DNA of 64,000 nucleotides from a phage: the NCBI GenBank assembly GCA_012813795.1, contig GCA_012813795.1_4087.1. One strand, 5' to 3'. The notes under the pieces were generated by a model. It ran no database searches. It saw only the letters and a program-made list of their open reading frames with translations, and was not told where the DNA came from. A program made the translations under genes and the position numbers. This document shows, in pieces, positions 13,906 to 48,685 of the stretch (position 1 is its first letter; every line of letters begins with the position of its first letter).

Positions 13906-14071
13906 AGAACTTCATTAAAAATGCTTTTTGTGAAAATCTCTGAAGCATTGAAACAGTTTCTTTTTTCATGTAAGCAATCTTATTGTCTACATCTAGCATT
14001 ATATCATGCTTTACGTTTAATTCCTGAATTGTTTTGTAAATTTCAAAATTTCGTTCTTTCATAGCCACCAA
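13859..14071 (-). CDS. hypothetical protein
   Basis: 70-aa ORF. Confidence 0.4.
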   Translation of the reverse strand: MVAMKERNFEIYKTIQELNVKHDIMLDVDNKIAYMKKETVSMLQRFSQKAFLMKFCADEHLTGRKLYNEA

Positions 14072-14372
14072 GATCCTCTAGTTCCCAAACAAGTTCTTTT
14101 GCTTCATCAATGTTATGGATGATTTGATAATGTCCAGAACTTGATGTTAGACGACTACCGTTTTGAGTAATGCAATAACCCCATGTTTTTGACTCATTAT
14201 GCATATCTCTCTGAAGTTTATATGGAGATTGTGGTTTCTTTTCTGCTATGTTTTCAGTATATAGGTCTTTTTCAATTTCCATACCACGAATGTGTGCATT
14301 CTTTTCAATACAACGGCAGATGATTATAGTAGCACAACATATTACAGTGATAATTATAGCATACATTTTCAA
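14043..14372 (-). CDS. hypothetical membrane protein
   Basis: 109 aa with hydrophobic N-terminal segment. Confidence 0.45.
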   Translation of the reverse strand: MKMYAIIITVICCATIIICRCIEKNAHIRGMEIEKDLYTENIAEKKPQSPYKLQRDMHNESKTWGYCITQNGSRLTSSSGHYQIIHNIDEAKELVWELEDLGGYERTKF

Positions 14373-14797
14373 TAACCTCTACTCTTACTAGTATGTTCAT
14401 TTATTGCATCTACCAGGTCATAACCCTGATAGTTAATACCATCAATTATAACTTTGTACTTATTACGTACCTTTGTGCCATCAGTTTTGGTCCAAATTGT
14501 GTTGTCTGGTGTAATAGATACAGTGTGATTTAAAATGAAATCAAACATCTGTTCCTTTGATAGTACTGTGACATTTTCAGTAATCATATCTACATTGATA
14601 CATTCACGAGTATGCTCAACACCTTCAAAAATGGCAACACCTTCGGTTTCTTTCAGTTTCTGTGCTTGAGCTTTAGCCGTTCCCATATCATCGGCATGAA
14701 CTGTTTCTGTACTGTATTCTACATTTAGTACGTTACCAGTATCTACGTCTTTCCATGTGTCACGAAAATGAACTTTAATCTTTGCTGTATTAGACAC
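14369..14797 (-). CDS. hypothetical protein
   Basis: 142-aa ORF. Confidence 0.5.
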   Translation of the reverse strand: MSNTAKIKVHFRDTWKDVDTGNVLNVEYSTETVHADDMGTAKAQAQKLKETEGVAIFEGVEHTRECINVDMITENVTVLSKEQMFDFILNHTVSITPDNTIWTKTDGTKVRNKYKVIIDGINYQGYDLVDAINEHTSKSRGY

Positions 14798-15254
14798 GAC
14801 CGCTTACCTCATTTTCTTTCAATTTAGAACATACATAGAGAATAGCACCCAATTCGTCACGTGTCAAGTCCTGTAGGTCATATGCCACCTGCATCTGAAA
14901 GTAACTTTCATCACTAAGGTCAGTGAATTGGTCAACATTTTCTACATGCACAAAGAAGTTTTTGGGATCATCATTGTAATGTGAATTATAAGGTCTTATT
15001 GAAAACCCATGACTGTATATATCCAATACGAATTTAGCATTTAAATAGCCCTCTAAATCAAGAGATGCAAGAATCGAATTGGATCTTTCAAAAATGTCCA
15101 TGAAATTATTACGATAAGATCTTGCACAAATCAGTACATCACCGAGTTGGATATCAACTTTCTGTCCAGTCTTGGATTCAGCTAACCCAATGATGTACTC
15201 CATAAACCCAGGAAAATATTTCCTGGATTTAATATCTTTCAGTACTGGACGCAT
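14790..15254 (-). CDS. EE-x-FFQ motif family protein
   Basis: C-terminal DESYFQMQVAYDLQDLTRDEL. Confidence 0.55.
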   Translation of the reverse strand: MRPVLKDIKSRKYFPGFMEYIIGLAESKTGQKVDIQLGDVLICARSYRNNFMDIFERSNSILASLDLEGYLNAKFVLDIYSHGFSIRPYNSHYNDDPKNFFVHVENVDQFTDLSDESYFQMQVAYDLQDLTRDELGAILYVCSKLKENEVSGRV

Positions 15255-15769
15255 TACATGTACCTCGCAAAAGAATCAATCTCTTCTGCATCAATCTTAA
15301 TCATATCTTCTGTACTGCTTGTGAAGATGATATGTCCATCAGGTGTAAATTGCAACCTCTGATTGATTGAGTACTGCATATTACATGAATCATATTCACC
15401 CCAGTCAATGACATATGATGCCATTTTGTCATTTGCACCGAAGAACACAACATGAGTAACATCACGCTCTGACAGGCGATCTACCAATGAAGTTCCGTTG
15501 TAAAAATCAGCCTCCGTGTCTTTCTTAAAGACAATAGCAAACTTCTTCAGTACTGATTCAATTGACAAACCATTAGCATAACGATATGCACGTTGCGATT
15601 CATCACCAACATACATGTACAGAATGTCAGTGAACTTGAAGTTTTGAACTTCACAGTTTTCAAATACTAGTTGTACTTCTTCAATGTTACCAAATGCCAT
15701 TTTATATCTCCGTGTACTCATATGTAATTCGATTACATATAGAAACAATTTAAATGTCAACCCATTCAA
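15254..15769 (-). CDS. hypothetical protein
   Basis: 171-aa ORF inside the paralog array, motif not evident. Confidence 0.5.
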   Translation of the reverse strand: MNGLTFKLFLYVIELHMSTRRYKMAFGNIEEVQLVFENCEVQNFKFTDILYMYVGDESQRAYRYANGLSIESVLKKFAIVFKKDTEADFYNGTSLVDRLSERDVTHVVFFGANDKMASYVIDWGEYDSCNMQYSINQRLQFTPDGHIIFTSSTEDMIKIDAEEIDSFARYM

Positions 15770-15790
15770 ATCAGACAGTTATGTGGTCGT

Positions 15791-16258
15791 TCACACTGTA
15801 CCCTTATTTGGAATCATTGCACTTAATCTTATTAAATCACGAATTTCTTCATATGTCAAGTCATGGATATCATGTAGAGTTTGAATCTGGAAGTACTGTT
15901 CTTCGGTTAATGGATGATAATTAGCACCAACTTCAATGTGACAGATTTCTGTGCTCTCAATAACTGAACTTAAATCCAAATTAACAGCATTAAATGGTGT
16001 TAAATGTAATGTAACACCACCGGAATTCACAATTACAGTGTATGTACGTTCGGTTCCCCTGTACATGTGTAGCCTCAGTGAGTGAATTTTCTCAAATGAA
16101 GTTGCAGCCCCATGAAGTTTATATGCATATATCTCAATGCTATATGAAGCATTCCATTGTGATGGATGATAACGGCACATCTTTTTTACCATCATGTCAA
16201 TTGCAGCACCCACCATACGACCCAAGTACTCACGATTAACTACTTGATCAAATCGCAT
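15791..16258 (-). CDS. EE-x-FFQ motif family protein
   Basis: C-terminal TEEQYFQIQTLHDIHDLTYEEI. Confidence 0.55.
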   Translation of the reverse strand: MRFDQVVNREYLGRMVGAAIDMMVKKMCRYHPSQWNASYSIEIYAYKLHGAATSFEKIHSLRLHMYRGTERTYTVIVNSGGVTLHLTPFNAVNLDLSSVIESTEICHIEVGANYHPLTEEQYFQIQTLHDIHDLTYEEIRDLIRLSAMIPNKGTV

Positions 16259-16659
16259 CTGAAATCCTCAATAAATTTCTGTACTGAAACCATCAACTCA
16301 TAAGGAATTCGCATATCTTTCACAGTGCTATCCTGAAAGTACTCTTCTTCAGTAGTATACAACTTACTAGCTGCCATTTTAACATCTTCAAAATCATCAT
16401 GAAAGAATTCGTTCTCATTGACAATAACATTAATACGTGCGTCATTAACCAATGTACCAGGAACTAGGTGAATTCCAAATGATAGACCACTTTTAATATC
16501 CTGAATATGGATAGTCAGAACACCATTATTCAGATAGCACCAGTTTTCATCTCCGAAGTAAACGTTCAATCCTTCACCTGGATAACGAAACTCACCATGA
16601 TTATCAAGTGCATTGATGATCATTTCATTGTATTCTGTACTTAACTTATAATTTTTCAT
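16240..16659 (-). CDS. EE-x-FFQ motif family protein
   Basis: C-terminal TEEEYFQDSTVKD. Confidence 0.55.
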   Translation of the reverse strand: MKNYKLSTEYNEMIINALDNHGEFRYPGEGLNVYFGDENWCYLNNGVLTIHIQDIKSGLSFGIHLVPGTLVNDARINVIVNENEFFHDDFEDVKMAASKLYTTEEEYFQDSTVKDMRIPYELMVSVQKFIEDFRCDLIK

Positions 16660-17129
16660 TCGTCCTCTTCCTCATATAGTTTGATACATTCAACGAAGTT
16701 TTTTGATAGTGCTTTATAAAAGTTATAATCAAAAACTAAATCATTGATTAAACTTTCCTGAAAGTATTCTTCTTCTGATTTATAATCTAACTTTAAATTA
16801 TCATCAGATGACAAAACTCGAACAAAGTGTGAGGCTCCATCTTCAGTACTAATATCGTAATAGATATTAATACTAATCACTATCTTGTTCTTGGTTCTTG
16901 GTTTCGTTAACTCAATTGTACAGTGCCATCCTTTGAGTTTGATTTCTTCAATGATAACATATTCATCCATGTATTCAAAGTAAATTAATGAACAGGAACG
17001 ATTAATATAAACACCCGGATAATGGTGTCTATCAAACATAAATTCTATCTTAGAGTTTTTAATAATTTCATCTGAAAGCATTTCAGTACTGATACCGTAC
17101 TGCATTAATACATCACGTATATTTGTCAT
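16656..17129 (-). CDS. EE-x-FFQ motif family protein
   Basis: C-terminal SEEEYFQESLINDL; 4-nt overlap with neighbours. Confidence 0.55.
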   Translation of the reverse strand: MTNIRDVLMQYGISTEMLSDEIIKNSKIEFMFDRHHYPGVYINRSCSLIYFEYMDEYVIIEEIKLKGWHCTIELTKPRTKNKIVISINIYYDISTEDGASHFVRVLSSDDNLKLDYKSEEEYFQESLINDLVFDYNFYKALSKNFVECIKLYEEEDE

Positions 17130-17521
17130 AACTTACCTACGACGTAACAGATTCTGCGTAAGTCAAAGAATGAAATTTTACTCAAATCATACACAAAGCA
17201 TAATTGCTCATACATTTCTTCTTGTAACTCATACATTACAGGATCAATATCGATGGCAATCATCTTGTCTATATCAATTTCAATATGATCTTTGAATAAA
17301 TCAATGGATATGTCATTAGTCGTAGTGATGTTATCAATGGTTATAAAAATGTTATCACAATTGTAAAACTCGGTTAAGTATCCATTATTGTATGCACCAA
17401 CAGTAATAATCCCATCCTTATGTGTCAATGTATGACGTTGTACAAATTCATTAAGTCTAACAAGATTGTACATATACTCAATAGCATCGGAAAAGATATC
17501 GTCTTCTACAACCAAATTCAT
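17126..17521 (-). CDS. EE-x-FFQ motif family protein (divergent)
   Basis: Start moved to ATG 17521 (MNLVVEDD) with AAGGAG RBS; track start overlaps the terminator; C-terminal ELQEEMYEQL. Confidence 0.5.
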   Translation of the reverse strand: MNLVVEDDIFSDAIEYMYNLVRLNEFVQRHTLTHKDGIITVGAYNNGYLTEFYNCDNIFITIDNITTTNDISIDLFKDHIEIDIDKMIAIDIDPVMYELQEEMYEQLCFVYDLSKISFFDLRRICYVVGKL

Positions 17522-17533
17522 GGTGTTCTCCTT

Positions 17534-17570
17534 AAAAAGAAAAAAGGCCGATTCAATTTGAATCAGCCTT
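17534..17570 (-). terminator. rho-independent terminator
   Basis: 13-bp stem AAGGCUGAUUCAA/UUGAAUCGGCCUU then U6CU5 on minus-strand RNA. Confidence 0.6.
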
Positions 17571-17571
17571 A

Positions 17572-17600
17572 AGTATAACATTTGTGGCATTGAAAGTCAA
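17572..17600 (-). promoter_or_regulatory. sigma70-type promoter overlapping terminator
   Basis: TTGACT-N17-TATACT on minus strand; predicted start site falls inside the terminator stem. Confidence 0.45.
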
Positions 17601-17850
17601 TACCAAAATCAAAAGTAATAACCTAGAGGGAGGGTAGTTATTACTCGTTTAGTGACATATATAATGATAAACAGGAGGTAAAAAACATTATACATGTTAT
17701 ATCTCTCCAGAACTACAATGATAGGTACTGGACCTGGAGAGAATGGAAAGACAAACCACTCACAGTACCATTTTACGACAAAATATGTGATAGCTTCTGA
17801 AAGAAAAAGGAGGATTCAGTACTGCTCCAGAAGCTATCGGTATAACATTT

Positions 17851-18129
17851 TCAGTACTGAATGTTTAGTTTAGGATGAGTATGTCCATCTTCGATTTGTT
17901 TTAGAATCGAGTCACGAATTTCTACTGCCCCTTGATAACTATATTTATCTCGTGGGATCACCCATGTATATTCACCATCAGTGGTTTTAAAATCAATACA
18001 CGGGTTATCTTTATATTCAGATGCAACCATTGCAATTACATGAATAGAATTCAAAGAATGATTAGAATACGGATAATTATCTTTGAACTTAAAGGTCTTG
18101 AGTTCTTCAGGAGCTACAATGAATTCCAT
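17851..18129 (-). CDS. hypothetical protein
   Basis: 92-aa ORF. Confidence 0.45.
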   Translation of the reverse strand: MEFIVAPEELKTFKFKDNYPYSNHSLNSIHVIAMVASEYKDNPCIDFKTTDGEYTWVIPRDKYSYQGAVEIRDSILKQIEDGHTHPKLNIQY

Positions 18130-18344
18130 TATTCATCCTCGTACTTCTTAAATGGTGGTACTGTTACATTGAAGTCTTTGCACATTTTAGTGGAACGAAC
18201 TTCAGTGTTGTTGTGGTAATTCTTCTTAAATTCATAAGAAACAAAATTACGAATACCTGGTGTATGAATAATTGCAAGAACAAAGGTACGACCAAAAAGA
18301 CATAACAAATTCCAGAACATATTAATCTCCAAATTAGTAGGCAT
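18129..18344 (-). CDS. hypothetical small membrane protein
   Basis: 71 aa with hydrophobic segment. Confidence 0.4.
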   Translation of the reverse strand: MPTNLEINMFWNLLCLFGRTFVLAIIHTPGIRNFVSYEFKKNYHNNTEVRSTKMCKDFNVTVPPFKKYEDE

Positions 18345-18688
18345 TAATCAAACGTGATACATCTAGTATAGCGTTAATCTCTTCTAATGTCAAGTCACCA
18401 ATGTCATTTATCATTGAGTACTGAAACAGTGATTCTTCAGTGTAATTGCATTCTGGTACAGCGATAAGGATAGGCTGCTTGGATACGTCCAAAGTTATTT
18501 TAGCCATTGTGCTATATATATCAAATTGATATAATTGATTTTTGGAAGTATATGATATGTATATATTATTTGATTCAGATGGATGTACCAAGGTAAAACC
18601 ATCGTAACATAATAGTTTAATGTTCGGATCGTCAAAATTGCCTGTATAAAGGTTCTTTCGAACATCTTGTATTATACGTACTATTAGA

Positions 18689-18696
<8 letters not shown>
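18334..18696 (-). CDS. EE-x-FFQ motif family protein
   Basis: C-terminal TEESLFQYSMINDIGDLTLEEI. Confidence 0.55.
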
Positions 18697-19465
<769 letters not shown>

Positions 19466-19468
19466 ACA

Positions 19469-19601
<133 letters not shown>

Positions 19602-19602
19602 A

Positions 19603-19702
<100 letters not shown>

Positions 19703-19746
19703 ATAGGCACATACGGGTCTGCTTTTAAGCTACTGATTCGGGAATC

Positions 19747-19792
<46 letters not shown>

Positions 19793-19799
19793 CGTTCTT

Positions 19800-20018
<219 letters not shown>

Positions 20019-32272: not shown

Positions 32273-34171
32273 TTAAAAGAATATATCACGTAGTAAATGT
32301 TCTATAACAGGTGCTGTCCAGCCATTACCAAGCATTTTGTACGCTTGTGTTGAACTACTAACTTTGAAGTAGTTTACATCAATTCCTTGCAACATGCAAC
32401 ACTCTTGTACTGTTAAATGACGATAGTCCACATTTCGTTTACCCTTCTCAATCAGGAAGTTCCTGTTGATATCAGGGTCTTTGAAAACGATTTGTCTTCT
32501 TGACTTATTGAAGTACTGATTCGGATCTCCACCCTTGAAGTAGTTTGCGTCAATGCAATATGATTTATCACGATCAGTATACCAATTACCAGTTAGTATA
32601 TCTTGTAATTTTGGTGCTAAAATAAGAGGTTTTGGAATAAACAACTTATCCGAGCTATACCAGTAGTAACGTTGGCGATAATGTGCTGTATAATTTTGTG
32701 AATTTATCAAAATTGGTGTCATTTCCAACACGCCATTGATATAATCCTTGAAATCTTCCTTCATCTTAACATTCTCAAAAAGAACTTTCAAGTTAGGATT
32801 GAGACTTTTTATGTGCTGGTAAATATCAACCATTGTATGGAATAACATACCACGAGGATCATTCACACCGCCTTGTTTCCCAGCAACTGACCACGCTTGG
32901 CAGTTATGAACTACAATATTGTTCGCCGTATATGTGTTATCTACTGCAACTTCAATATTGTAAACGGTTTTCCATTCTCCGGTTGTGGTGTTCGATTTAA
33001 CACCTTTTACCCATGAATATGACCCATCATCATAGAATGCTTCATCTTTTCGGTGCTTTTCTTTTTTGTATGTTAATACGTAATACGGCTTCTGATTAAC
33101 AACACGTTCTTCTATAACTTTTGTTTCAGACGGTTTAAAGTATGTTATGTTAGAATGACGACCATACACATTCATAATTAGTTGTTGTATACCAAGAATA
33201 ACATTCTTTGATGTTGATGTAAATTTTAAACAATCATCTTTCTTGTCATGGTGACCATCTGCGTCAAAATAACCATCAATGAATGCTTTCTGATTAGCGA
33301 TACTTTCAGTGAAAAGTGTGGGGTGTACTTGTTTATTTGAAGCACCCTTACCCATTTGTTCACAAAATTCAACTAGTTCTTTTGAACAAATATAGAATTT
33401 ATAAGATGTTCTTTCTTTAACAAAATTATATTTCATATTCATACCATCAAAACATGAAACCAATTCATCAAATTCATCATGAGCACAGCAAATAAAAACA
33501 CGATATTGATAACTATTTTTTCTATTTTGTCGTTTTACTTTGTAAGTCCATCCATCACCCATAAATCTACCCATGAAATACCAAAAGCTTTCACTCTTGT
33601 TATGTTGAAAATTCACATTACAACGAACATTACATATAGCATGTTCTTCTGTGAGTTCATGTGCATCGATCCATGTAGGTTCTGTATATTCACGAACATA
33701 TTGTCGTTTTTCATTATCCCACTTCTTGCTCATTTTTCTCGCATAAAATGGATGATTATCAGTGCATTCAATTGGTATATGTCCCTGACCTGTGATGATT
33801 CTTGTTGGTGCAATCTTGCTACCAATACTCAATACTTTTTGGTATTGTCCAGTGTGTGTAAGAACCATATCACCAATTTTTATATCTTTTATATCTTTAT
33901 GACCTTCATTTGTCATGATCATGGTTCCTGCTGGGAAGCAAGGAAAACCACCCATCAGAAGATCTATCTTGTCCCATTCGATATCCCATTCTTTCCATCT
34001 AGTTACATCACCCAATTGGATGATATCAGGAAAGTTAGCCTGGGATTCAGCTATAGCAAATTTATCAATTTCAGATGAGTAGTACTTTTCAACTGGTATT
34101 CCTGCACTTTGCAAGGCCATATACCCAACACTCATCCCATTGAATAGTGATAGTACACGTATCGGTTCCAT
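32273..34171 (-). CDS. DNA (cytosine-5)-methyltransferase interrupted by an in-frame intein
   Basis: Motif I LFNGMSVG, then GGFP | intein | CQAWSVAG restores the catalytic PCQ motif; ENV motif follows. Confidence 0.85.
   Translation of the reverse strand: MEPIRVLSLFNGMSVGYMALQSAGIPVEKYYSSEIDKFAIAESQANFPDIIQLGDVTRWKEWDIEWDKIDLLMGGFPCFPAGTMIMTNEGHKDIKDIKIGDMVLTHTGQYQKVLSIGSKIAPTRIITGQGHIPIECTDNHPFYARKMSKKWDNEKRQYVREYTEPTWIDAHELTEEHAICNVRCNVNFQHNKSESFWYFMGRFMGDGWTYKVKRQNRKNSYQYRVFICCAHDEFDELVSCFDGMNMKYNFVKERTSYKFYICSKELVEFCEQMGKGASNKQVHPTLFTESIANQKAFIDGYFDADGHHDKKDDCLKFTSTSKNVILGIQQLIMNVYGRHSNITYFKPSETKVIEERVVNQKPYYVLTYKKEKHRKDEAFYDDGSYSWVKGVKSNTTTGEWKTVYNIEVAVDNTYTANNIVVHNCQAWSVAGKQGGVNDPRGMLFHTMVDIYQHIKSLNPNLKVLFENVKMKEDFKDYINGVLEMTPILINSQNYTAHYRQRYYWYSSDKLFIPKPLILAPKLQDILTGNWYTDRDKSYCIDANYFKGGDPNQYFNKSRRQIVFKDPDINRNFLIEKGKRNVDYRHLTVQECCMLQGIDVNYFKVSSSTQAYKMLGNGWTAPVIEHLLRDIFF
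32903..33940 (-). mobile_element. intein with LAGLIDADG homing-endonuclease domain (residues 78-423 of the methyltransferase ORF)
   Basis: Starts with Cys (CFPAGTMIM), TDNHPF block, two LAGLIDADG-like motifs (FMGRFMGDGW, AFIDGYFDADGH), ends VVHN then extein Cys. Confidence 0.8.
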
Positions 34172-47866: not shown

Positions 47867-48685
47867 TTAGCACGTCCCTTTGTTGTTCTTCTCTCTGTAC
47901 CAGTTGAAACCCTTAACTGGTGGGTACTTCTCATCTTTAGGTGGCTCCGGCATATCATACACCGTTGCATTCCTAAATTTTAAAATGTAAACTTCCATAA
48001 GACGTATGATAGCATAGTTTAAACATTTCTGTGCTCTTTCTTTCCAAAAATGTTTATATGGTTCTGGACAGTTTAGATAGTCCAGTTTATACATACCCAT
48101 TGCTGCTTGTACAAATCTCTGTGCTGAAAATTTACGTTTGTCAACCTTACTGGCTCTGTACTGATCAGATGTCCAGCTTTGTACCCCAGGTAAATGACAA
48201 AACAAATCAAACTCTACCATAGAACTAAAATATTCATTATGACCGTGTAGTTCACCATAGAACAATGCCTCATTGACAGTCTCATATAATGAAAAATTCA
48301 TATGTATATGTTCATTATCAAAGATGTTCTTTAGTTCTTTGTACGTCTCTGGTACTGGTGGTTCAGGTAACAACTCACCAAATGTCTCAATGCACCAGAT
48401 TTTCCACAATCCTTTTGTGAATTGTACTTCACGTTCTCTATCACTGTCAATATAAAATGTTTTTTCATTAATGAAAACCTTTCGTGCCATATATGCTTTA
48501 AAGATTGCATCGGGATCGATATCATCACGTTTAATGTCATCCCATCCCTTACCAATCCTTGAAATCTCAAATCTACGCATATACATTCTACAAGCTAAAT
48601 CTTTTGTAGTACTGCGACGATACTTTTCATCCTGAACCAATTTAGTACTTTCATGTAGAGATTTCAACATATTTAAAATTCTCAT
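47867..48685 (-). CDS. hypothetical protein
   Basis: 272-aa ORF. Confidence 0.5.
   Translation of the reverse strand: MRILNMLKSLHESTKLVQDEKYRRSTTKDLACRMYMRRFEISRIGKGWDDIKRDDIDPDAIFKAYMARKVFINEKTFYIDSDREREVQFTKGLWKIWCIETFGELLPEPPVPETYKELKNIFDNEHIHMNFSLYETVNEALFYGELHGHNEYFSSMVEFDLFCHLPGVQSWTSDQYRASKVDKRKFSAQRFVQAAMGMYKLDYLNCPEPYKHFWKERAQKCLNYAIIRLMEVYILKFRNATVYDMPEPPKDEKYPPVKGFNWYREKNNKGTC

Follow-up and report, generated by a model that had tools for sequence, protein, structure and literature searches.

In a 64,000-nucleotide (nt) stretch of phage DNA (contig GCA_012813795.1_4087.1; its full length is referred to as the window), a hairpin with an adjoining U-tract is overlapped by promoter hexamers on the minus strand between positions 17534 and 17600. 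We regard this junction as probably being a composite of an intrinsic terminator and a sigma-70 promoter, located at an operon junction in an early-type ORFan region of an Asteriusvirus jumbo phage. The composite, hereafter the cassette, is conserved among ten Asteriusvirus sequences, RNA started within it is predicted to lose the base of the hairpin stem, and sequence conservation breaks between the gene blocks on either side of it. The minus strand is the coding strand for nearly all genes of the window, and upstream refers to higher coordinates throughout.

Terminator, promoter and predicted start site

The cassette and the translation start that follows it consist of the following elements.

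17572-17600, minus strand: sigma-70-type promoter with -35 box TTGACT (17600-17595), 17-nt spacer and extended -10 box TGtTATACT (17580-17572), a 10/12 match plus the TG
17534-17570, minus strand: intrinsic terminator, hairpin C, with a 12-bp stem (17570-17559 and 17555-17544), loop AAU and U-tract (17543-17534)
17519-17533, minus strand: Shine-Dalgarno (SD) sequence AAGGAG (17533-17528) and ATG (17521-17519) of the downstream gene; Escherichia phage A4 is annotated with the same start codon (A4_157)

The arms of hairpin C, AAGGCUGAUUCA and UGAAUCGGCCUU, form a stem with five G-C pairs and one U.G pair, closed by a 3-nt loop and directly abutting UUUUCUUUUU (17543-17534), in which 9 of 10 nt are U. 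Its predicted folding was far more stable than that of 200 shuffled sequences (z = -5.4). A strict terminator test, which demanded a perfect stem of at least 11 bp, at least five G-C pairs and at least eight T in the next 10 bases, was applied to both strands of the window. Hairpin C was the sole match in 64 kb, and none occurred in 30 Markov-1 simulated windows. The hairpin has a G+C-containing stem, a short loop, an adjoining U-tract and a sense orientation after a gene. It is unidirectional, with the plus-strand version lacking a T-tract. In GenBank, the records of phages G17, UE-S1 and Muenster label the homologous hairpin a terminator, an assignment made independently by ARNold or other annotators. 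The next strong terminator on the minus strand is located at 12655-12628; since hairpin C abuts the SD sequence of a multigene array that precedes this next terminator, the array should need a promoter of its own.

The same stem, AGGCTGATTC-loop-GAATCGGCCTTTT, was found again in metagenome loci L034 to L074, in approximately 20 unrelated families of contigs that vary in G+C content, often lying immediately 3' of transfer RNA (tRNA) genes. This recurrence looks like convergence, rather than homology or mobility, and the stem sequence as such would not be special. A scan of metagenomes for more diverse homologues of the cassette returned 41 loci, one of which was an Asteriusvirus (L041), the rest being unrelated terminators with the same stem. 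A corresponding scan of IMG/VR returned only RaK2 and 121Q genomes, plus chance matches in high-GC contigs.

Within the promoter, the -10 hexamer TATACT occupies 17577-17572 and the TG of the extended -10 occupies 17580-17579. The -10 box ends 1 nt before the hairpin C stem, which places the canonical start site at a predicted 17565 +/- 1, within the 5' arm of the stem. From this position, the 5' untranslated region (UTR) of the downstream gene would be approximately 43 nt long. The 25 nt upstream of the -35 box are a T-rich tract of 76% A+T, compared to 65.5% for the window, and overlap the tail of hairpin B described below. An additional ATG at 17590 is in frame with the downstream gene and lacks a ribosome-binding site (RBS). 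Along the minus strand, the stop codon of the upstream 92-amino-acid gene is followed in turn by approximately 250 nt without a credible open reading frame (ORF), the -35 box, the 17-nt spacer, the -10 box, the stem, the U-tract, the SD sequence and the ATG. Further sigma-70-type promoters are present on the upstream side at 18393 and 19524. As a match the promoter is not significant on its own, and we took it as real because it is conserved.

In folding calculations, RNA that reads through from upstream formed the full stem at approximately -16 kcal/mol, flush with the U-tract. RNAs starting at 17566, 17565 and 17564 retained only 8, 7 and 6 pairs, with energies of -6.9, -4.7 and -4.7 kcal/mol, respectively. 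In such 5'-truncated RNA no G-C pair of the stem base is left, and 4 to 6 nt separate the residual stem from the U-tract. By what is established about intrinsic termination, RNA started at the predicted position, with 6 to 8 pairs left, should therefore escape it.

In the mechanism that we propose, host RNA polymerase arriving from the upstream unit (tRNA-Thr and the genes at 19114-17851) would transcribe a highly folded untranslated tail of approximately 280 nt. The full 12-bp hairpin would then form beside the U-tract, and the transcript would be released at approximately 17535-17540. A second polymerase would bind TTGACT-N17-TGtTATACT just upstream and initiate at approximately 17565, in the 5' arm of the stem. 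Its RNA, without the G+C-rich stem base, would read through, carry a leader of approximately 43 nt with AAGGAG, and express the downstream ORFan array. In this way the cassette would insulate the array from upstream transcription and supply it with its own promoter. The original prediction had described a hairpin and U-tract terminator at 17534-17570, overlapped by a TTGACT-N17-TATACT promoter starting inside the stem, so that upstream transcripts stop while new ones start. The hairpin with its U-tract is real and the promoter coordinates are correct; the stop and restart, two activities that we infer, is supported by conservation and energetics.

Conservation of the cassette and of the genes around it

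The window originates from an Asteriusvirus, a Rak2/121Q-like jumbo myovirus of Escherichia coli, and has a G+C content of 34.5%. Positions 17000-18400 are 98.7% identical to phage A4, whereas the match to approximately 33 other Asteriusvirus genomes begins only at 17766 and extends rightwards at approximately 86% identity. To compare the cassette, we aligned the window with A4, 121Q, G17, WPEC3, UE-S1, CMSTMSU, ph0011, JNE01 and BF17. A block of the form TGTTATACTTA(A)GGCTGA(T/A)TC...GA(A/T)TC(G/A)GCCTTTTT, or TGTTATACTTA(A)GGCUGA(U/A)UC...GA(A/U)UC(G/A)GCCUUUUU as RNA, is essentially invariant in these ten sequences. TGTTATACT does not vary at all, and TTGAC of the -35 box is kept in 8 of the 10. 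The hairpin loop (3 to 6 nt), the promoter spacer and the SD region vary. Within the stem, JNE01 has one compensatory change from U-A to A-U, and the U.G pair is turned into U-A in ph0011.

Two Klebsiella phages of another genus (Alcyoneusvirus), RaK2 and Muenster, have retained the stem as well. In these phages it precedes a homologue of one gene of the downstream array, at the head of the homologous array. The cassette occurs once in the window, with up to three mismatches allowed, and in one place per genome in all 43 phage records that matched. A repeated cassette was ruled out, since neither the window nor any related genome has more than one copy of the exact sequence.

The genes that flank the cassette differ markedly in their conservation.

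17851-18129, minus strand: upstream gene, an ORFan of 92 amino acids (phrog_30132), 81 to 88% amino acid identity to 121Q-type phages
17126-17521, minus strand: downstream gene, an ORFan of 131 amino acids (phrog_35192), 25 to 50% amino acid identity to relatives, or no match

Nucleotide identity to 121Q was 77 to 98% at 17800-20000 and 45 to 65% at 14000-17500, with an island of 82% at 17500-17599. At the protein level, the upstream genes (17851-19114) are 75 to 90% identical to their counterparts in 121Q-type phages, and the downstream genes (14000-17521) are 25 to 50% identical or missing. The 92-amino-acid gene is the last of the conserved block, and JNE01 and Turkey5 lack it. The 131-amino-acid gene heads a fast-evolving tandem array of paralogous ORFans of approximately 130 to 160 amino acids, which reaches to approximately 14000. 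Gene presence differs among relatives on both sides. Judged by this comparison, the junction is a predicted operon boundary that coincides with a gene-turnover boundary, and the cassette appears as a fixed evolutionary point between a conserved block and a block of fast turnover. A boundary between expression classes, as originally proposed, was not borne out; sigma-70-type promoters and paralogous small, presumed-early ORFans occur on both sides.

No function could be assigned to the ORFans on either side. A weak C-terminal motif (around EEEYFQ / LT.EE) is common to tandem ORFans of approximately 120 to 160 amino acids that flank the junction, from 14000 to 19114 on the minus strand. This indicates that they probably form one old paralogous family, which would be evolving fast downstream of the cassette.

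According to its annotation, A4 has a long array on a single strand that comprises small hypothetical genes, tRNAs and two genes for sigma-70-family sigma factors. In the related phage CBB, a region of the same layout is the proposed early region, transcribed by host RNA polymerase (PMC5259590). Related jumbo phages depend on host RNA polymerase, TTGAC/TATAAT promoters and stem-loop terminators (PMC7318152, PMC5259590). A literature search returned no description of a promoter or terminator for Asteriusvirus and no relevant work on its transcription. As a kind of element the junction is ordinary; its novelty is limited to this phage group.

The spacer, the palindrome and alternative readings

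The region that adjoins the cassette towards the upstream stop codon (17575-17850) had been described as a 270-bp leader with inverted repeats, without minus-strand ORFs and with a possible 59-amino-acid plus-strand ORF. It cannot be a leader of the promoter's transcript, being located upstream of that promoter. The inverted repeats are real and numerous. The region and its margins have the following features.

17850-17861: palindrome copy 1, TTCAGTACTGAA, with core CAGTACTG at 17852-17859; invariant in relatives and kept in JNE01 despite the missing gene
17817-17824: palindrome copy 2, CAGTACTG, in the loop of hairpin A
17789-17838, minus strand: hairpin A, predicted 14-bp stem GAUAGCUUCUGGAG / UUUCAGAAGCUAUC; loop with palindrome copy 2 and UCCUCCUU
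17697-17783, minus strand: insertion of approximately 87 nt, present only in the window phage and A4; holds hairpin I (17702-17742, 10 bp) and a third GGTACTG
17655-17697, minus strand: hairpin X, 12-bp stem ACAUGUAUAAUG / CAUUAUAUAUGU, loop with ACCUCCU; helix 3, 98% paired
17613-17646, minus strand: hairpin B, 11-bp stem, loop ACCCUCCCUCUA, then a U-rich run; helix 4, two compensatory pairs
17585-17605, minus strand: hairpin P, predicted 9-bp stem, the 5' arm of which holds TTGA of the -35 box

The sense strand of the spacer folded at -93 kcal/mol, compared to -62 +/- 4.6 kcal/mol for shuffled sequences (z = -6.7), whereas the antisense strand gave z = -4.5. The shorter version in 121Q yielded z = -7.0. 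In eight relatives, 95.6% of alignment cells were paired, against 29 to 51% in slid controls, and four compensatory pairs were counted against 0.7 +/- 0.8 in shuffles; the sample comprises approximately five independent lineages, whose kinship the shuffle control ignores. The helix of hairpin A is 100% paired in the relatives that have it. One of its G-C pairs in the window is A-U in other phages, and one-sided changes in UE-S1 and JNE01 yield U.G on the sense strand. Hairpin P (helix 1) has four pairs changed on both sides between lineages and is 81% paired. Both B and P keep their positions, with the stem sequence replaced between the window and 121Q lineages. In 121Q-type phages, hairpin X has a homologue in the GUAUAAUGA / UCAUUAUAU hairpin. 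Every one-sided change in the spacer is a G.U on the sense strand, which would be an A.C on the other strand. This covariation points to probable selection on RNA transcribed in the direction of the genes. The spacer must belong either to the 3' untranslated end of the upstream operon or to a separate RNA. A structured 3' tail is the simplest account, and a separate or processed noncoding RNA (ncRNA) is possible.

The spacer is also plastic: it tolerates the 87-nt insertion, hairpin A is missing in ph0011, and the C-rich loops are missing in UE-S1. The insertion was considered as a small mobile repeat and rejected, with no second copy in the window and none in the phage collection except in A4. 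An apparently conserved block, TAnAATGnTA, was also dismissed, the window row being a MAFFT misalignment; the true homologue of the GTATAATGA arm of 121Q is 17693-17686, in hairpin X. A search of 17400-17950 against Rfam 15 yielded no match at the gathering score or at E <= 10, the best hit scoring 21 bits against a threshold of 57. ARAGORN and Rfam found no tRNA in the gap, only five tRNAs elsewhere in the window passing.

Tracts of the CCUCC type occur in three successive loops, those of A (17802-17824, UCCUCCUU), X (17667-17685, ACCUCCU) and B (17624-17635, CCCUCCCUC), and resemble the anti-Shine-Dalgarno end of 16S ribosomal RNA. UE-S1 lacks the tracts in X and B. On the sense strand, CCTCC has 14 copies, of which 8 are in the 10.7% of the window that is noncoding by the gene map, and three more lie under ORFs judged spurious. 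In JNE01 and Turkey5 (loci L008, 1484-1743, and L031), the 92-amino-acid gene is missing and the palindrome pair, hairpin A, an analogue of hairpin B and the cassette are kept. The noncoding module would therefore be inherited independently of that gene.

The TGA of the 92-amino-acid gene (17853-17851) is located inside palindrome copy 1, and both copies are conserved in relatives, including JNE01, where this gene is absent. AGTACT occurs 146 times in the window against approximately 16 expected, CAGTACTG 34 times against approximately 0.6 to 0.75, and CAGTACTGAA 16 times against 0.1. The words (C)AGTACT(G), 9- to 45-fold overrepresented, are by far the most overrepresented in the window. Coding sequence carries the AGTACT motif in each of its three frames, no 8-kb bin is without it, and relatives, RaK2 among them, have it as well. 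Some copies overlap a -35 box (TTGACAGTACTG) or abut the -10 box of strong promoters, and in two places the full site is the 14-bp ATTCAGTACTGAAT. Examples are the following.

17852-17859, 17817-17824, 19766-19773, 19646-19653, 2553, 8031, 2891, 21681, 22542, 25761: copies of the palindrome

RNAalifold pairs the two spacer copies with each other, with one compensatory pair and three U.G changes, a pairing that would create a pseudoknot with hairpin A. Another long gap without ORFs, at 19574-19799 on the minus strand, is 90 to 98% identical to 121Q and contains two perfect 14-nt copies of ATTCAGTACTGAAT 120 nt apart, predicted to form a 15-bp stem (z = -3.0). These paired palindromes are followed by a stem-loop and a T-run abutting a 12/12 promoter, TTGACA-N16-TATAAT (19524-19497). 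A literature search on CAGTACTG returned nothing relevant. The palindrome may act in RNA, bind a protein or be a DNA signature of the whole genome, and is the main unexplained item of this region. With about one AGTACT per 440 bp in these genomes, the selective cause is the larger question that it raises. Elsewhere on the minus strand, 32273-34171 encodes a C5-cytosine DNA methyltransferase of 632 amino acids, split by an intein with Hint and LAGLIDADG homing-endonuclease domains (approximately residues 77 to 423). The intein is inserted at the catalytic PC motif; methyltransferase homology ends at approximately residue 81 and resumes at approximately 423, which corresponds to approximately residue 81 of HhaI and 70-71 of HaeIII.

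Several observations count against a combined stop and restart at the cassette. Sigma-70-like matches are at chance frequency in this AT-rich window (31 found versus 28.4 expected), and strong promoter-like matches are common inside genes (38 of 60 in coding sequence). The -35 boxes of UE-S1 and ph0011 are weakened. RaK2 and Muenster have kept the hairpin but not the -10 box (TTTACT, TTTATA), so a terminator can exist without this promoter. Covariation in the stem is thin, with 7 of the 12 pairs never varying, and the start site, the efficiency of termination and the escape from it are all inferred. The chance-level promoter matches, the hairpin of RaK2 and Muenster without a credible -10 box and the phage's own sigma-70-family factors would also suit a terminator that merely ends the upstream unit beside unused hexamers, with partial read-through or a different promoter, specific to the phage, accounting for expression of the array. 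We consider this unlikely. Between TGTTATACT and TTGAC, both conserved in the ten Asteriusvirus sequences, the spacer varies without constraint, and a terminator of -16 kcal/mol located 10 nt before the SD sequence would otherwise silence an array of approximately 5 kb. In addition, the middle (TGAAACG) and late (ATAAATA) motifs of CBB (PMC5259590) were not seen in the region on inspection by eye, with no formal scan.

A functional structured RNA at 17571-17865, using hairpin C as its terminator, is compatible with the composite terminator-promoter and, among the alternatives, deserves the most attention, although we hold it only tentatively. It could be a stabilizing or processed 3' UTR, a 3'-UTR-derived ncRNA or an independent one. 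The strand-specific folding, the covariation and the replaced stems of B and P all favor it, as does the precedent of ORF-less transcribed regions of 236 to 619 nt in phage PA5oct (PMC7318152). However, no credible promoter for such an RNA was found, the conserved TATAAT being an arm of hairpin X without a -35 box. The missing Rfam match, the insertion and hairpin losses that the spacer tolerates, and the small number of independent lineages also argue against it. A long, structured, ORF-less region ahead of a terminator and SD sequence would fit a regulated attenuator or riboswitch leader, in which upstream transcripts are the downstream mRNA and the 270-nt region decides on termination at hairpin C. 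We rejected this as very improbable: neither arm of hairpin C has a complement of at least 8 nt in the window or in 121Q, and the best complements (6 to 7 nt) are at nonhomologous positions, so that no antiterminator pairing is available. The region matches no Rfam family, is highly variable in length and sequence, and is separated from the terminator by a conserved promoter, upstream of which it lies. The spacer is just as improbable as a source of a small protein. No minus-strand ORF of at least 30 amino acids is present in 17575-17850, as had been claimed, and the only minus-strand candidates are a 28-codon ORF (17695-17609) and the in-frame ATG at 17590. The 59-amino-acid plus-strand ORF (17694-17873) exists, but its proposed RBS, AGGAGG (17673-17678), is 15 nt from the ATG, which is too far. 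Both ORFs are open in the window and in A4, and the 28-codon ORF encodes a hydrophobic peptide and has GGAG 9 to 12 nt upstream. It has no counterpart outside A4, though, and the frame of the longer ORF is interrupted by stops in 121Q, G17 and UE-S1; the N-terminal half of the latter lies in the insertion specific to the window and A4, only the part over hairpin A aligns, and it is antisense to all neighboring genes. Neither product matched Pfam or PHROG.

The conserved island right where conserved gene blocks give way to replaced ones, together with the variable gene presence on both sides, could also reflect a DNA-level element, namely a homologous-recombination linker for module swaps as in the promoter-early stem-loops (PeSLs) discussed below, with the two CAGTACTG as operator-like sites for a phage DNA-binding protein. 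The 45-fold overrepresentation of the palindrome, its overlap with the -35 box or contact with the -10 box of several promoters, and the 14-bp palindrome ATTCAGTACTGAAT as full site fit such a role. This reading appears doubtful to us. The cassette is single-copy, which makes PeSL-like exchange within a genome and mini-circles impossible, and the homology break with 121Q at 17766 is approximately 170 nt off the cassette. The G.U-only one-sided changes argue for selection on RNA, and the binding protein is a hypothetical candidate only. On a more speculative note, which we rate between the structured RNA and the DNA-level element, the stretch of approximately 280 nt might be a conserved modular structured RNA of Rak2-like jumbo phages. 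It would consist of stem-loops A, X, B and P, several with anti-Shine-Dalgarno-like CCUCC(UU) loops, bracketed by copies of the lineage-wide, 45-fold overrepresented palindrome ATTCAGTACTGAAT. These copies would pair (as the pseudoknot with hairpin A and the 15-bp stem in 19574-19799) or bind a phage factor. In doing so they would mark where early transcripts are processed or insulated, or act as operators at early promoters.

Comparison with known systems

Other composites of promoter and hairpin are present on the minus strand of the window. A -10 hexamer is located in the hairpin loop at 45436-45408, 30103-30075, 8042-8014 and 46644-46616, and a whole promoter lies inside a stem at 11451-11422. 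A terminator stands directly 5' of the -35 box at 47881/47840, 59478/59446 and 43007/42981, with a similar architecture at 19524. In a crude scan, perfect stems of at least 8 bp accompanied 7 of 22 intergenic promoters and 10 of 38 promoter-like sites in genes, which is no clear enrichment, so that recurrence rests on the individual examples.

For the spacer, a precedent as a stable RNA is given by ncRNA001-004 of the related giant phage PA5oct, which are ORF-less transcribed intergenic regions of 236 to 619 nt in a phage that likewise depends on host RNA polymerase (PMC7318152). No sequence similarity to them was detected, and the spacer is known from sequence alone. Hairpin C resembles a canonical Rho-independent terminator in its 12-bp G+C-containing stem, 3-nt loop, nine U in 10 nt and sense orientation. 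It differs in that the -10 box takes the place of the A-rich 5' flank and in the unusual conservation of its stem across two genera. As in lambdoid morons (discussed in PMC2839356), flanking promoter and terminator would make a gene block autonomous and insulated. However, morons consist of one inserted gene each, which often opposes the late operon around it in orientation, whereas here a co-oriented multigene array in an early-type region follows signals that are fused in one cassette.

The closest known kind is the PeSL of T4-like phages (Arbiol et al. 2010, PMC2839356; Comeau et al. 2014, PMC4122927), in which sigma-70 promoters are fused to stem-loop terminators in ORFan-rich hyperplastic regions. 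Promoter and terminator activities of PeSLs were shown experimentally, and a role as recombination linkers at indel or replacement junctions was proposed (PMC2839356, PMC4122927). Five subclasses are distinguished by the position of the stem-loop (PMC2839356), and the cassette fits the one in which it is downstream of the -10 box. Both elements join an early promoter of sigma-70 consensus to a stable stem-loop, with termination at ours being predicted. Both are located between a stop codon and the next SD sequence and ATG, in an ORFan-rich hyperplastic region and at an indel or replacement boundary between related phages. A PeSL also carries an AT-rich, UP-like tract ahead of its -35 box; the T-rich 25 nt at our element may or may not be a counterpart. 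On the other hand, the host here is an Asteriusvirus rather than a T4-like phage, the stem is not poly-G/poly-C, and a structured spacer of approximately 280 nt precedes it, the upstream stop being approximately 250 nt before the -35 box with five further stem-loops between. The cassette is also single-copy and not part of a dispersed family of repeats of approximately 100 bp; with the other composites in the window it has nothing but the promoter hexamers in common. Exchange between copies within a genome is therefore impossible, but exchange between genomes is possible. The element is thus a composite terminator/promoter and not a member of the PeSL family.

The cassette provides a concrete, testable transcription-unit boundary in 350-kb coliphages whose regulation is unstudied. 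It is also a candidate part for phage and synthetic biology, with a core from the extended -10 box to the U-tract of approximately 47 bp, or approximately 67 bp from the -35 box to the U-tract, that should halt incoming transcription and restart it at a defined level. Its likeness to PeSLs suggests that the terminator-inside-promoter design of T4-like hyperplastic regions is perhaps a more general solution, which would let large lytic phages insulate their fast-evolving ORFan arrays.

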